Origin: a virus
Taxonomy: Duplodnaviria; Heunggongvirae; Uroviricota; Caudoviricetes
Reading direction: 5' to 3' (one strand)
IMG/VR virus record: IMGVR_UViG_2698536484_000017
DNA: 8,285 nucleotides
The stretch's first letter is position 1. Each line of letters starts with the position of its first letter. The notes below the pieces were generated by a model. The model was not told the DNA's origin, ran no database searches, and worked only from the letters and a program-made list of their open reading frames with translations. Made by a program: the position numbers and the translations under genes. Shown here piece after piece: positions 312 through 4,804 of this stretch.

Positions 312-2288
312 TCAGCTGATACTGATGCCTGCGGTGGCTTTCTTCATCACCACAACCAGCAAATCGCTGATACTTGCTGTGGGATACCAGTCATTTACCA
401 GCCATGCTGACACCGAAAACTCCAGCGTCATGTGACCGTGACCGGCAGGCATATCAATAACGCCACTGTAAATCAGCGTATTATCCAGCGCGGTACGGTT
501 ATAAATTTCAGCACCGTTTTTCCGCACTATCAGACGGCATGAGGAGTAAATATCAGTATGCTCTCTCTCATGTTTAGCGCCGCTGAATGCCACCGCAGGA
601 ATAACAATCTGCCGGTCAAACGGCTGATCGTCATAAACCCTGACGGTAATGGTCCCTGATGGCCACCGTTCCGGTGCACGGGAGTCCCGGGGGAAAGCTT
701 TGCCCACTGTTTTAACGAGATCGCCTTCAATCTGGTTCGCGGACAGTTTTCCCAGAACCCGACAGTTCTCGTTAATCGTGACGTTGTTGAGCGTCCCGGA
801 GTTCGCATTCACGTTACCGCTGATATCGGCATTTTTCGCCGTCAGCCGCCCATCCGGTGTCAGGGAAAATGCCGGAGGATTACCGCCGCTGGTAATGGTG
901 GGAGCCGTCAGGCGCTTCAGGAACACGTCGTTCATGAATATCTGATTGCCCTGCGCCACAAACATCGGCGTTTCATTCCCGTTTGCCGGGTCAATAAATG
1001 CGATACGGTTAGCGGCAACCAGAAACTGACTCAGTTTGCCTTCCTCCGTGTCCTCCATGCTGAGGCCAATACCCGCGACATAATGTTTGCCGTCTTTGGT
1101 CTGCTCAATTTTGACAGCCCACATGGCATTCCACTTATCGTTGGCGTCCTTCCACTCTTTCGAAAACTCCTCCAGTCTGCTGGCGTTATCCTCCGTCAGC
1201 TCGACTTTTTCCAGCAGCTCCTTGCCGAGATGGGATTCGGTTATCTGGCCTTTGAAAAAATCCAGGTAACCTTCCGCATCATCGCTCGCCCGACCGACAG
1301 CCTCCACAAATGCCGATTTGCCAACAGTGTTCACACTACGGATATAAAAATAATAATCATGGCCCGGTTTGATATTGATACTGGCGGCTATCCAGTACAG
1401 CGCCGTGCCAAGATAGCGGGCTGTGGTTTCAACCTGCCTGATATCGGTAATCCGCTTTTCCGAGAACCAGAACTCAAACTGTACCGTCGGATCATAAACG
1501 GCAAGATGCGGCGTTGCGGTTATCTGAAAATAGCCCGGCGTCAGCTCAATCCGCGACGGTGCTGCCGGTGCGGCAATCCGGAACGATACCGATGCCGGAT
1601 CGCCCTGCTGCCCCCAGGCATTTGCCGCCCGGACTGTCAGCCTGTAGTTTCCCAGGGCCAGTTGCGTGAAGCGGTATGTGGTTTCCGTCGTCCGGGCCGT
1701 GCTGACCAGCCGCTCACTGCCGTCGTCTGCTGCCACAGTCAGGCGAAGCATAAAGCTCACACCCTTCACCACCTTCGGCGTGTCCCATCGCGCCAGCACC
1801 TGATATTCCCCGCTGTCTGCAGTGACTTCTGCGATCAGGTGCTGCACCGCTGGCGGCGTGACACCATTCACCGTGCCACTCTGTTCGCCGTCAAAGTGCG
1901 CCCCGTTATCCACGATGGCCTCTTTTTCCGGCACATGCTGCACGGCGGTGATGGCATACGTGCCGTCGTCGTTCTCACGGATACTCACGCAGCGGAACAG
2001 TCGCTGGCGCAGCGTCGGCAGCTTCAGCCCCCATACGCTGTATTCAGCAACACCGTCAGGAACACGGCTCACTTTTACCTTCACGCCGTCGGTGACGGAC
2101 TGAACCTCCACGCTGACCGGATTGCCACTTCCGTCAACCAGGCTTATCAGCGTGGTACCGGAGGATGGCAGCGTGATTTCACGGTCGAGCGTCAGCGTCC
2201 GGGTCTGGCTGTTCACCGCCAGCACACGACCACCGGTGCTGATACCGGCATAGTCATCATCACAGATTTCAATGACATCGCCCGGCAC
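312..2288 (-). CDS. J: Tail tip attachment / host specificity protein J, C-terminal fragment, separated from the N-terminal part by a frameshifting tandem duplication (likely pseudogene fragment)
   Basis: The 658-aa ORF aligns by eye with lambda J from about residue 480 to the end ([46 protein letters not shown]... FN3-like central region ...LGISIS). The J frame is actually open upstream to about 2318, reading [15 protein letters not shown], so J homology begins at the duplication junction near 2303. The start shown in the ORF track is an alternative start codon inside the protein, not a true initiation site. Confidence 0.8.
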
Positions 2289-2303
2289 ATGGCGAAGCCC
2301 TTC
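1208..2303. repeat. Copy 1 of a ~1097-bp direct tandem repeat inside the J gene
   Basis: Sequence from about 1208 (tttccagcagctc...) to 2303 (...gacatcgcccggcacatggcgaagcccttc) recurs at +1097 bp. Marker strings ccagcagctc at 1211 vs 2308 and aatgacatcg at 2271 vs 3368 confirm the offset. The plus-strand ORFs 1822..2103 and 2919..3200 are 93-aa near-identical twins at the same offset. Confidence 0.9.
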
Positions 2304-4804
2304 ATTTCCAGCAGCTCTTTACCGAGATGGGATTCGGTTATCTTGCCTTTGAAAAAATCCAGGTAACCTTCCGCATCATCGCTCGCCCGACCGACGGCCT
2401 CCACGAATGCCGATTTGCCAACGGTGTTCACACTGCGGATATAAAAGTAATAATCATGGCCCGGTTTGATATTGATACTGGCGGCTATCCAGTACAGCCC
2501 CGAGCCAAGGTAGCGGGCTGTGGTTTCAACCTGCCTGATATCGGTAATCCGCTTTTCCGAGAACCAGAACTCAAACTGTACCGTCGGATCATAAACGGCA
2601 AGATGCGGCGTTGCGGTTATCTGAAAATAGCCCGGCGTCAGCTCAATCCGCGACGGTGCTGCCGGTGCGGCAATCCGGAACGATACCGATGCCGGATCGC
2701 CCTGCTGCCCCCAGGCATTTGCCGCCCGGACTGTCAGCCTGTAGTTTCCCAGGGCCAGTTGCGTGAAGCGGTATGTGGTTTCCGTCGTCCGGGCCGTGCT
2801 GACCAGCCGCTCACTGCCGTCGTCTGCTGCCACAGTCAGGCGAAGCATAAAGCTCACACCCTTCACCACCTTCGGCGTGTCCCATCGCGCCAGCACCTGA
2901 TATTCCCCGCTGTCTGCAGTGACTTCTGCGATCAGGTGCTGCACCGCTGGCGGCGTGACACCATTCACCGTGCCACTCTGTTCGCCGTCAAAGTGCGCCC
3001 CGTTATCCACGATGGCCTCTTTTTCCGGCACATGCTGCACGGCGGTGATGGCATACGTGCCGTCGTCGTTCTCACGGATACTCACGCAGCGGAACAGGCG
3101 CTGGCGCAACGTCGGCAGCTTCAGCCCCCATACGCTGTATTCAGCAACGCCGTCAGGAACACGGCTCACTTTCACCTTCACGCCGTCGGTGACGGACTGA
3201 ACCTCCACGCTGACCGGATTGCCACTTCCGTCAACCAGGCTTATCAGCGTGGTACCGGAGGATGGCAGCGTGATTTCACGGTCGAGCGTCAGCGTCCGGG
3301 TCTGGCTGTTTACCGCCAGCACGCGCCCGCCGGTGCGGATACCGGCATAGTCATCATCACAGATTTCAATGACATCGCCCGGCACATGGCGAAGCCCTTC
3401 TGCGCCCACGCTGAAGTCCACGGTCTGCGTTTCCAGCAGTTCTGTTTTAATCAGCCACAGCCCGGCGCGGTGTGCCTGCCCCCGGCTGGTACAGCCAAAG
3501 GCATCCATCTTCGTGACGTTACGACCGTAACGGGCAATGGCCTGCGTGTCCTCCACAAGCTCTGTTGCCGTCTCCCAGCCATTGTCCGGGTCAATCCAGT
3601 TCACCTCAACGGCATTATGGCGGTCCTTCAGGGCGCTGAAGCTGTAGCGGAACGGCGCGCCATCATCCGGCATCACCACATTACTGCGGTTATAGGTCCA
3701 CACCTTATCCGACGGTCGGTCCTGCACGAACGTCAGCGTCTGCCCGTTCCATACCGGCATACAGCGCATCGCCGAGCAGAAATCACTGAGCACATCCCAC
3801 GCCTTGCGCTGCGTGGTCAGCCAGGCATTACAGGTGATGCGCGGCTCCGTGCCGCCAAAGCCGTCCGGCACCGACTGGTCGCAGTACTGGCCGATGACAT
3901 ACAGCGCCCATTTATCCACATCCGCCGCACCAAGACGTTTCCCCATGCCGTAGCGCGGATGGGTCAGCATATCCCACAGACACCAGGCCGGGTTGTTGCT
4001 GTATGCCGGTTTTAACGTTCCGTCCCAGATACCGCTGTATTGCCGCGTCTGCGGGTTATAGTTCGACGGCACCTGCAGAATGCGCCCGCGAAGATGATAA
4101 TTACGGCTCACCTGCTGGCTGCCGAACTGCTCCGAGTCCACCTGCACGCCGACCAGTACCGTGTTCGGGTAGCACTGTTTCACATCGATGATTTCGGTGT
4201 ATGACGACCAGAGCGTTTTGTTCTGCAGCTGGTCTGTGGTGCTGTCCGGCGTCATCCTGCGCATCCGGATATTAAACGGGCGCGGCGGCAGGTTATCCAC
4301 CACCACCGAGGCCAGATACTGCGACGTGGTTTTGCCCTTAATGGTGATGTCTTTTTCCGTCACCCAGCCACCGTTACGTTGTATCTGAACCAGCAGGCGG
4401 ACTTCCGACGGATTCCGGTCACCCTTTGAGGTGGTTTCCACCAGTGCCTGCACGCCGAAAGTAAAACGCAGACGGTCAATGTTTGCCGACGTGATGGTCC
4501 GGGTGATCGGCGTGTCATATTTCACTTCCGTACCCAGCACCGTCTCGGAGCCGGAGGATTCAAAGCCCTCAGGCGGTGTCTGCTCCTGCTCACCTGCCCG
4601 GAACACCACCGTGACGCCGGAGATATTGGTATTCCCCTCACTGTCCAGCACCGGCGTACTGTTCAGCAGCACGCTTTTTAATCCATCCACCGGACCTTCA
4701 ACCGGCCCTTCGCTGATGGCATCGATCACACTCAGCAGCTGCGTGGACTTCAGGTTGTCCTTCGCTTCGCGCGGGGTATGCCCCTTACTGCTACCTTTAC
4801 CCAT
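2213..4804 (-). CDS. J: Tail tip attachment / host specificity protein J, N-terminal fragment; frameshifted at the duplication junction, with an out-of-frame tail of about 30 codons
   Basis: ATG at 4804..4802 preceded by GGAG/GAGGA. The protein [34 protein letters not shown]... is near-identical to the lambda J N-terminus and colinear through about residue 817 (...[17 protein letters not shown]). After the junction at about 2304 the frame reads [30 protein letters not shown] and stops, which is not J sequence. Confidence 0.85.
2305..3400. repeat. Copy 2 of the ~1097-bp direct tandem repeat inside the J gene
   Basis: Same as copy 1. The copies abut head-to-tail with about 1 nt between them (junction around 2303-2305). 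By eye a central core of about 600 bp is identical, with substitutions clustered toward both ends. Confidence 0.9.

Follow-up and report, generated by a model that had tools for sequence, protein, structure and literature searches.

How did the tail-tip gene of this prophage come to hold two adjacent copies of a 1.1-kb block whose centres are identical and whose ends differ? The stretch of DNA analysed here (the window, 8,285 nucleotides) comes from the tail module of an E. coli lambdoid prophage, and the repeat lies in gene J on the minus strand. All six gpJ Pfam domains are present (FNIII-A_GpJ, Phage-tail_3, Ig_J, Ig_J_second, Phage_Tail_Tip and Ig_GpJ_C; E-values 1e-34 to 1e-43), with Ig_J and Ig_J_second each seen twice as a result of the repeat. 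Pfam and PHROG matches, together with annotated matching loci, place H, M, L, K and I upstream and lom downstream. In its domain set and order, and in its position after H-M-L-K-I and before lom, the gene is like that of bacteriophage lambda gpJ (tip attachment and host specificity), and annotated gpJ genes share 93-99% nucleotide identity with it. Unlike lambda gpJ, however, it is split by a 1,097-bp internal tandem duplication, unique among records, so that the six domains are divided between two ORFs of 863 aa and 658 aa rather than lying in one of ~1130 aa.

312-4804, minus strand: tail-tip/host-specificity gene J, broken by the duplication (Pfam domains over two ORFs; relatives with one gpJ gene)
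2213-4804, minus strand: N-terminal J fragment ORF, 833 J residues followed by 30 out-of-frame residues and a TGA
312-2288, minus strand: predicted C-terminal J fragment ORF, in the J frame and open from an internal GTG
1208-2303: repeat copy 1, second in the J reading direction (J residues 469-833), from the offset-1097 comparison
2305-3400: repeat copy 2, first in the J reading direction, from the same comparison
2304: single base A at the joint between the copies, from the offset-1097 comparison

Relatives are annotated at this locus with a single gpJ gene of 3396-3414 bp, and their span across the J region is ~1097 bp shorter than that of the window. The base at 2304 makes the period 1097, which is not a multiple of 3; the duplication shifts the frame, so that the prophage as written cannot make a full J protein. 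Removal of one 1097-bp period in silico gave a single intact J ORF of 1131 aa with its end at 312. The duplicated residues 469-833 include both Ig-like domains. Neither of the two J fragment proteins is on record, as judged by exact look-up. On the plus strand, the long antisense ORFs at 1083-2366 and 2327-4015 had no Pfam match, and a scan of the window for promoters and terminators gave nothing over the shuffled expectation.

The repeat was defined by comparing the window with itself at an offset of 1097. This replaced TRF, which returned no array because its period limit of 500 is below the repeat period, and an automatic repeat finder that reported just the first 300 nt of the repeat. Two adjacent direct copies, head-to-tail and each of 1096 nt, are 98.2% identical with a period of 1097, and the end-to-start joint between them is novel, having no counterpart in single-copy relatives; the structure is a tandem segmental duplication. 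The copies mismatch at 20 positions (copy 1 coordinates): 11 in the first 206 bp (1221, 1224, 1247, 1299, 1308, 1326, 1338, 1350, 1402, 1406 and 1413, the proximal sites) and 9 at 2001-2240 (2001, 2012, 2052, 2076, 2214, 2226, 2229, 2232 and 2240, the distal sites). A core of 587 bp (1414-2000 against 2511-3097) is free of mismatches, as are the last 63 bp. Mismatch-free gaps as long as the core arose in 1.5e-5 of 200,000 random placements (permutation p = 1.5e-5). The initial annotation, which had described mosaic copies with an identical core and diverged flanks, was borne out by these data. It had set the core at about 1425-2005, right to within ~10 bp; the nucleotide strings and the residue pairs that it quoted (ISTGGR/IRTGGR, GTALYW/GSGLYW and KGQITE/KGKITE) are all present; and the substitutions, whose uniform spread it had named as contrary to its reading, are clustered at both ends.

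It had further argued that simple slippage cannot explain the copies. Were slippage followed by divergence through point mutation, or were the differences sequencing errors, such a process would account for just the single private base at 2503. The other 19 of the 20 differences are states known from other J alleles in a panel of 77, and they occur in blocks. The clustering described above also speaks against this origin, as does the ratio of 16 synonymous to 4 non-synonymous differences, which neither a pseudogene nor an error process would be expected to give. What separates the copies is imported allelic polymorphism, and slippage with later mutation or error is so improbable that it can be called already refuted.

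The closest single-copy allele, L001 (NZ_CP141863; E. coli strain 'numer 3'), carries the copy 1 state at 11/11 proximal sites and the copy 2 state at 9/9 distal sites (Fisher p = 6e-6). From 2305 to 8285 the window aligns to it ungapped at 99.65% identity, with no indel over 5,981 bp and with 13 of the 21 mismatches within 2318-2545. Judged from these alignments, this backbone type, X, apparently gives both flanks, the outer ends of both copies and both 587-bp cores, and a second type, Z, is confined to the surroundings of the joint. L001 differs from the Z tract at all 20 variable sites and at 2304; L004 (NZ_CP076272-like) agrees with the joint-proximal states at 19/20 sites and has the A after the unit end.

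889-2000: left backbone segment, X type (NZ_CP141863-like), differing from L001 at no site in 889-1413 and at 2 in the core
2511-8285: right backbone segment, X type, comprising the rest of J, upstream I, K, L and M, and the end of H (alignment to L001)
1414-2000: core of copy 1, rare X type, identical to 2511-3097 (panel mismatch counts)
2511-3097: core of copy 2, X type, identical to 1414-2000 (panel mismatch counts)
2001-2510: minimal non-backbone (Z-type) tract at the joint, with a maximal extent of 1835-2689 (L001 and L004 states, painting)
2503: private base A (Thr to Ser), the sole copy difference in none of the 77 alleles

Few alleles have the X-type core: mismatch counts are 2 for L001 and L010, 5 for L015 and L017, and at least 15 for every one of the remaining 73 in the panel, making it the type of 4/77, and at least 99% identity to copy 1 was seen in just 20 of 4,632 matching records. 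Viterbi painting with the 77 alleles followed L001 to 1878, then L004/L009, L024 and L006/L021 to 2545-2688, and then L001 again. The switch zones fall inside shared identical stretches, at 1835-2000 and 2511-2689, and the Z tract around the joint measures 510-855 bp with the joint base included. This tract is closest to strains E21845/O/A and NCTC9113. Adjoining segments have different nearest alleles and the differences are pre-existing polymorphisms, not new mutations; by allele comparison, the locus is a recombinant mosaic.

Along the window the segments apparently run X-X-X-Z up to the joint and Z-X-X-X beyond it, and the copies are not an 'allele A' and an 'allele B'. Differences between the copies are therefore limited to the places at which one has the Z tract and the other X sequence; the cores are identical because the same X sequence is present twice. 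The proposal in the initial annotation that two distinct J alleles had recombined survives in part, as more than one J allele contributed, but its geometry of one allele per copy with later homogenisation of the core does not. Copy 1 with its flank is not one allele and copy 2 with its flank another; the pattern is crossed, with outer ends and cores of one type and inner ends of another.

These data bear on an unequal crossover between two alleles, in which allele A (left flank and copy 1) would have been illegitimately joined to allele B (copy 2 and right flank), their cores being alike already or made so later by gene conversion. Its breakpoints are equal in number to those of our preferred model, and J is so mosaic that alleles composed like copy 1 or copy 2 could exist unsampled. 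Neither copy, however, was found as an intact allele anywhere searched, and among 5,426 E. coli genomes both have the same best allele (NZ_CP141863, NZ_CP023844, NZ_CM132944), at 99.0% for copy 1 and 98.8% for copy 2. The initial annotation had regarded a match of both copies to one J allele elsewhere in the genome as contrary to its reading; the shared best allele comes near to this. The left three quarters of A and the right three quarters of B would, moreover, both be of the same rare X type (0 mismatches to L001) with facing ends both Z, a coincidence in this crossover that a patch of Z within X predicts. We consider the two-allele crossover improbable.

In the backbone allele, the unit is bordered by T on both sides. 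An A directly after the unit end (AGCACCC) occurs in 19/77 panel alleles, including L004, L006 and L007, and the A at 2304 is best read as templated by a Z-type allele. This base is pertinent to another route, a plain duplication within X for which single-copy Z-type paralogues later served as donors in two separate short gene conversions, both stopped at the joint where homology ends. Such a route is consistent with both cores and both outer ends being X; patches of this size are common in J, and homology to a single-copy donor does stop at the joint. An X-born joint, however, would have T at 2304 and not the Z-type A that is there. Two independent events would also have had to flank the joint with none elsewhere in 2.2 kb, and short-lived tandem repeats leave little time for two more events, making this route very improbable.

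We favour a model where the joint was itself of Z type and X arms were attached to it by homologous exchange in each copy, through ends-in/gap-repair or template switching. Judged on the allele states, this is the most likely explanation, one on which our confidence is evenly balanced. The end-to-start joint would have arisen by illegitimate joining in Z-type DNA, belonging to another lambdoid prophage, or a phage, that shared the cell, and two homologous switches, in copy 1 (1835-2000) and in copy 2 (2511-2689), would have linked the X arms to it. This would match ends-in (Campbell-type) integration with the gap repaired from the resident allele; equivalently, a single run of recombination-dependent replication may have passed from an X to a Z template, jumped back 1097 bp and returned to X. 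Given that E. coli genomes have a median of 2 and a maximum of 15 J-like places, donors are at hand. Among the 5,426 E. coli genomes (~12,600 J places), no allele combining Z-type ends with an X-type core was found, and such an allele would have outranked the 98.8% best match to copy 2; this favours models that copy both cores from the backbone. An allele of this kind would also be needed if a Z-type circle had integrated in simple Campbell fashion, with no gap repair, and that route was down-weighted. As the duplication is the sole lesion in J, the event would be recent. A 1.1-kb tandem repeat in a RecA+ cell is expected to be unstable, which counts against the model; on this ground the duplication must be very recent.

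Ends-in (Campbell-type) integration with double-strand-gap repair was reportedly described by Orr-Weaver and Szostak for gapped plasmids in yeast. The geometry predicted by ends-in gap repair, and by break-induced replication with template switching, is like that seen here, with donor sequence flanking the joint and the gap region copied from the resident allele into both repeats. In contrast to ends-in gap repair, no vector or circular donor is evident at this locus, and the pathway is deduced from its product. Spontaneous tandem duplications occur in enterobacterial chromosomes. The window's repeat resembles these in being direct, head-to-tail, ~1 kb long, presumably unstable and a singleton with a novel joint, but here the copies are non-identical and the DNA around the joint comes from another allele than the remainder. 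Mosaic lambdoid genes, products of homologous or homeologous recombination by Red and Rad52-like recombinases (PMC2327257, PMC3945230), similarly have segments with different nearest alleles joined in shared identity, and donors are plentiful in poly-lysogenic E. coli. At this locus, in contrast, the foreign patch surrounds a non-homologous end-to-start joint, and the exchange would have carried or created a duplication rather than effecting a simple replacement. Lambda Red is described as recombining diverged sequences efficiently and contributing to mosaicism (PMC2327257), and temperate phages as taking up defective-prophage DNA via relaxed homologous recombination (PMC3945230).

Several observations count against the Z-joint model. 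The joint is a singleton in all collections searched: neither 5,426 complete E. coli genomes nor 50,697 phage records nor 72,556 plasmids contain it, and exact 30-mer scans of GTDB representatives, IMG/VR and JGI metagenomes gave no match. (A degenerate 27-mer pattern allowing A or T at 2304 matched a Phenylobacterium MAG and a metagenome contig, L011 and L012; both have unrelated flanks and T as the joint base, and were set aside as chance matches.) The exact Z donor was not found among the alleles searched, the best match to the 601-bp inner tract being 98.8%. There is no microhomology at the joint and no Chi site near it; the window contains none at all, which rules out Chi sites as the cause of the switch points. 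Finally, the route has a cost: a Z-type duplication must have existed beforehand, or the template must have been switched three times in one event.

Some of these same observations are expected of an assembly artefact, the alternative raised in the initial annotation. In prophage regions rich in repeats, false duplications arise when overlapping contig ends are left unmerged, and they are similar in that the joint, located in a multi-copy gene, is unique, blunt and frame-breaking and in that paralogue-like bases occur at the two inner ends and nowhere else. Here, two contigs, both crossing the shared 1.1-kb stretch, may have been joined end to end and not merged, with their last 200-300 bp drawn from paralogous-J reads, or a real Z-type duplication may have been mis-phased onto X arms via the identical core. 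The joint is unique across every collection searched, blunt and without microhomology; it breaks the frame though the rest of J is intact; and the foreign-allele bases occupy precisely the inner ends of the copies (~300 bp in copy 1 and 206 bp in copy 2), the places at which contigs would end. J is multi-copy in most E. coli genomes, a classic setting for such errors, and the window may represent a short contig in full, with repeated prophage genes (lom, H) at its ends.

Against this, the window has no gap, N runs or ambiguous bases, and the absence of indels over 5,981 bp of L001 indicates high base quality. A de Bruijn graph needs joint-containing reads to build the joint. The Z-type bases at 2304, 2318 and 2321 all lie at most 17 nt from the joint, so that any supporting read would tie the joint physically to the Z tract. 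The mis-phasing form requires the same Z-type allele with an X-type core that is unseen among the ~12,600 J places, and it was likewise down-weighted. Unlike a false assembly duplication, the joint-proximal bases make up a coherent, natural-looking allele, and the mosaicism of the inner tract is no greater than that of natural J alleles, which in leave-one-out painting had a median of ~4 donor switches per 1.7 kb. The notion that this tract is a chimeric consensus of several paralogues gained no support either way from the painting, natural alleles being equally mosaic. We judge an artefact to be a serious possibility, though not a probable one. On a tentative reading, which we consider rather unlikely in this full form, the structure genuinely exists as the trace left naturally by a single ends-in/gap-repair or template-switching event between two co-resident lambdoid phages: a joint-bearing J fragment would have integrated into another J allele, with both repeats receiving a copy of the resident core.

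The mosaic duplication is an unremarkable outcome of co-resident prophages recombining, or of their assembly. Real or artefact, it has little consequence beyond the J locus and introduces no new kind of element or mechanism. If real, it marks the prophage as tail-defective and offers a clean, datable example of co-resident lambdoid prophages shuffling the host-range gene J, in which a duplication was also transferred or created. If it arose in assembly, it serves as a useful warning that a contig join can yield a mosaic repeat in a multi-copy prophage gene, and J should then not be annotated as a pseudogene. Should the ends-in or template-switch route be general, phage tail proteins could gain extra Ig-like/FN3 domain blocks or transfer them between alleles; the product here is out of frame.

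One further patch lies within the cores.

1446-1448: G at 1446 and T at 1448, with the same pair at 2543/2545 and so shared by both copies; C and C in all four X-type alleles

The G/T state is common in Z-type alleles (38/77), and the unit coordinate of the patch in copy 1 coincides with the Z-to-X switch zone of copy 2. In copy 1, the patch is what branch migration or heteroduplex repair would leave.

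The window lies wholly in a lambdoid prophage of Escherichia coli and covers its distal tail module; the genes are read on the minus strand and are listed below.

Genes of the window
7593-8216, minus strand: C-terminus of the tape-measure gene
7267-7596, minus strand: M
6569-7267, minus strand: L
5821-6639, minus strand: K
5282-5923, minus strand: I
4871-5221, minus strand: small conserved ORF between I and J (116 aa as listed, ~112 aa as annotated in relatives)
4804 down to 312, minus strand: tail-tip/host-specificity gene J
2213-4804, minus strand: ORF of the N-terminal J fragment (863 aa)
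Left end of the window, minus strand: lom-type gene, start only

Megablast matches to the region were obtained in 4,964 of the 5,426 complete E. coli genomes, the best of them at 95-99% identity over a span shorter by about 1,097 bp; these loci are annotated with a single unbroken gpJ gene. J in the window is typical of the lambda gpJ family in domain content and position, and departs from it only in not being one ORF. The small ORF at 4871-5221 has no Pfam match and belongs to phrog_914; relatives list it as hypothetical.

Comparison of every base with the base 1,097 positions on resolved two copies of a repeat, 1208-2303 and 2305-3400, separated by a single A at 2304. The copies differ at 20 positions, 11 in 1221-1413 and nine in 2001-2240, with no difference over 1414-2000 (587 bp) or in the final 63 bp of the unit. 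A difference-free gap of that length occurred with a probability of 1.5e-5 in 200,000 random placements. The identical core, with substitutions clustered in diverged ends, was described by the initial annotation to within about 10 bases, and all of the nucleotide strings and residue pairs it cited are present.

The repeat unit encodes J residues 469-833, covering the end of the Phage-tail_3 domain and both Ig-like domains. Its period is not divisible by three: the N-terminal frame of J runs through copy 2, falls out of frame past the joint and stops after 30 foreign residues, and the only open frame for the remainder of J starts at an internal GTG (2288). Removal of one period, in any register, regains a single 1131-aa ORF with no further stops or indels, and the duplication is therefore the sole lesion in J. 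No microhomology was found at the joint. A hairpin of seven pairs with a T run after it (1179-1207, plus strand), resembling a terminator in pattern, ends exactly at the left repeat breakpoint. A stem-loop so placed could favour stalling or template switching; a scan gave no excess of such structures over shuffles, and this one may be there by chance. Both copies also carry a 10/12 sigma-70-like site on the antisense (plus) strand (1330-1357 and 2427-2454), and long antisense ORFs at 1083-2366 and 2327-4015 have no family match; these antisense features are probably by-products of codon bias.

The differences between the copies are largely synonymous (16 of 20), and 19 are states present in other J alleles, indicating that they are imported polymorphisms rather than mutations or errors; as the initial annotation argued, slippage alone is insufficient. 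The exception is position 2503 (A in the window; T in 74 and C in three alleles of the panel described below; Thr to Ser), which reflects either a base error or a private mutation. Of the single-copy alleles, L001 (NZ_CP141863, strain 'numer 3') is the closest, and its ungapped alignment to 2305-8285 has 99.65% identity. In L001 the 11 proximal sites all show the copy-1 state and the nine distal sites all show the copy-2 state (Fisher probability 6e-6). L004 (NZ_CP076272, strain E21845/O/A) shows the reverse pattern, with the joint-proximal state at 19 of the 20 sites. More than one J allele contributed, as first proposed. The base following the unit in L004 is A, as at 2304, whereas the L001-like backbone has T on either side of the unit. 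Below, X denotes the L001-like and Z the L004-like allele type.

Mismatches to L001 are absent from 889-1413 and 3098-3400, number two in each core and two in 3401-4800, and rise to 10 in 2001-2304 and 11 in 2305-2510. Among the few others in the backbone, three (5131, 5132 and 5135) are grouped inside the small ORF between I and J. We also painted the window with a copying model using 77 ungapped alleles of J, of which E. coli genomes supplied 10 and IMG/VR the others (L-numbers denote these related loci).

Copying-model painting of the window against 77 alleles
920-1878: L001
1879-2157: L004 or L009
2158-2286: L024
2287-2545 or 2287-2688: L006 or L021
Remainder beyond 2545 or 2688: L001 again

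Together, the segment mismatches and the painting establish an X-X-X-Z / Z-X-X-X structure, in which one backbone allele provides both flanks, the outer ends and both cores. The foreign Z tract is centred on the joint and measures at least 510 bp (2001-2510) and at most 855 bp (1835-2689); the copies differ solely where Z tract in one is opposite X sequence in its partner. That two or three panel donors are needed within this tract is not unusual, since leave-one-out painting of natural alleles takes about four switches per 1.7 kb (median). The core type of both copies is rare: four panel alleles lie within five mismatches and every other has at least 15, and only 20 of 4,632 matching E. coli records reach at least 99% identity to copy 1.

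This structure does not fit the origin first proposed, in which copy 1 and its flank came from one allele, copy 2 and its flank from another, and gene conversion homogenised the core. The outer ends and both cores are instead all X, and a single database allele is the best match to both copies (99.0% and 98.8%). Neither copy occurs as an intact allele in the databases searched, and both parents would have to be of one rare backbone type along three quarters of their length, and Z type precisely at their mutually facing ends. A single Z patch across the joint predicts the shared backbone and Z-type facing ends, which two separate parents leave to coincidence. We consider the two-parent origin very unlikely; the initial observation is correct and its explanation partly wrong.

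Z states lie close to the joint: the A at 2304 and the Z-type bases at 2318 and 2321 fall within 17 nt of it on one side, and the Z-type base at 2240 is 64 nt away on the other. Because the joint is embedded in Z-type sequence, the end-to-start joining would have occurred in, or been copied from, Z-type DNA, and linkage to X-type sequence would have taken one homologous switch per copy. Both switches fall in stretches identical between the X and Z alleles. No combination of Z-type ends with an X-type core was found among ~12,600 J places, where such an allele would have outranked the best copy-2 match; given this, and that both cores are X, they were most likely copied from the resident backbone. 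A candidate route is ends-in, Campbell-type integration with double-strand-gap repair; a single run of recombination-dependent replication passing from X to Z, back one period and returning to X would fit equally well. Both models are established, and we infer either pathway from its product. J-like places number a median of two and a maximum of 15 per E. coli genome. Earlier work describes efficient recombination of diverged sequences by lambda Red (PMC2327257) and the gain of defective-prophage DNA by temperate phages through relaxed homologous recombination (PMC3945230).

Unit positions 239 and 241 (1446 and 1448; 2543 and 2545) read G and T in either copy but C and C in each of the four X-type alleles, and 5,426 genomes yielded no G/T allele of the backbone type. 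In copy 2 these positions sit at the Z-tract edge. Their presence in copy 1 could be a remnant of heteroduplex repair after branch migration, which fits a real exchange; alternatively, the shared bases could derive from an unsampled true parent or from a short conversion tract that was copied to the two repeats.

An assembly artefact, in which overlapping contig ends were joined rather than merged or reads were mis-phased through the core, would account for several features. The joint is a singleton, absent from complete E. coli genomes, INPHARED phages, PLSDB plasmids, GTDB representatives, IMG/VR and JGI metagenomes, and neither J fragment protein was on record in protein look-ups. The joint disrupts an otherwise perfect gene without microhomology, and paralogue-type bases are limited to the two inner ends, as unmerged contig ends would show. 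Against this, the window contains no Ns and no indels relative to L001 across 5,981 bp, the inner tract resembles a coherent natural allele, and a de Bruijn graph cannot yield a joint absent from the reads; mis-phasing would moreover require the Z-ended, X-core donor type missing from the J places searched. We regard an artefact as possible but the less probable reading. With T in place of A at the joint base, a 27-nt string of the joint region is also matched exactly in a Phenylobacterium MAG (L011, 4546-4572) and a JGI metagenome contig (L012, 6536-6562; 161-nt context identical to L011). The matched string lies in an unrelated gene and was rejected as coincidental, albeit surprising for its length.

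There is ample precedent for mosaicism in lambdoid tail genes, for tandem duplications and for false duplications in prophage repeats; the joint with its crossed allele pattern is a new example of something already familiar in kind. Its general interest is low. Of moderate interest is a more speculative reading, to which we attach rather little confidence, that it may be a natural trace left by template switching or by integration with gap repair, able to move or create duplications of Ig-domain blocks in tail proteins.

Prophage J is inactivated by other routes too. In a related J (L053, IMG/VR UViG_2850808358_000003), an insertion of ~1.4 kb at 3619-5044 encodes an IS4-family transposase (Nterm_IS4, DDE_Tnp_1) and has ~13 bp of J repeated at both ends; its site corresponds to window ~1170-1182, ~30 bp from the left duplication breakpoint. 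Unrelated to the duplication, a further recombination boundary lies in J at ~889, the receptor-binding end being of other origin than the rest: L001 has no megablast match to 330-761, 24 clustered mismatches at 768-888 and identity from 889 onward, and the best match to 1-1420 is strain KV7 (NZ_LT795502, 98.8%).
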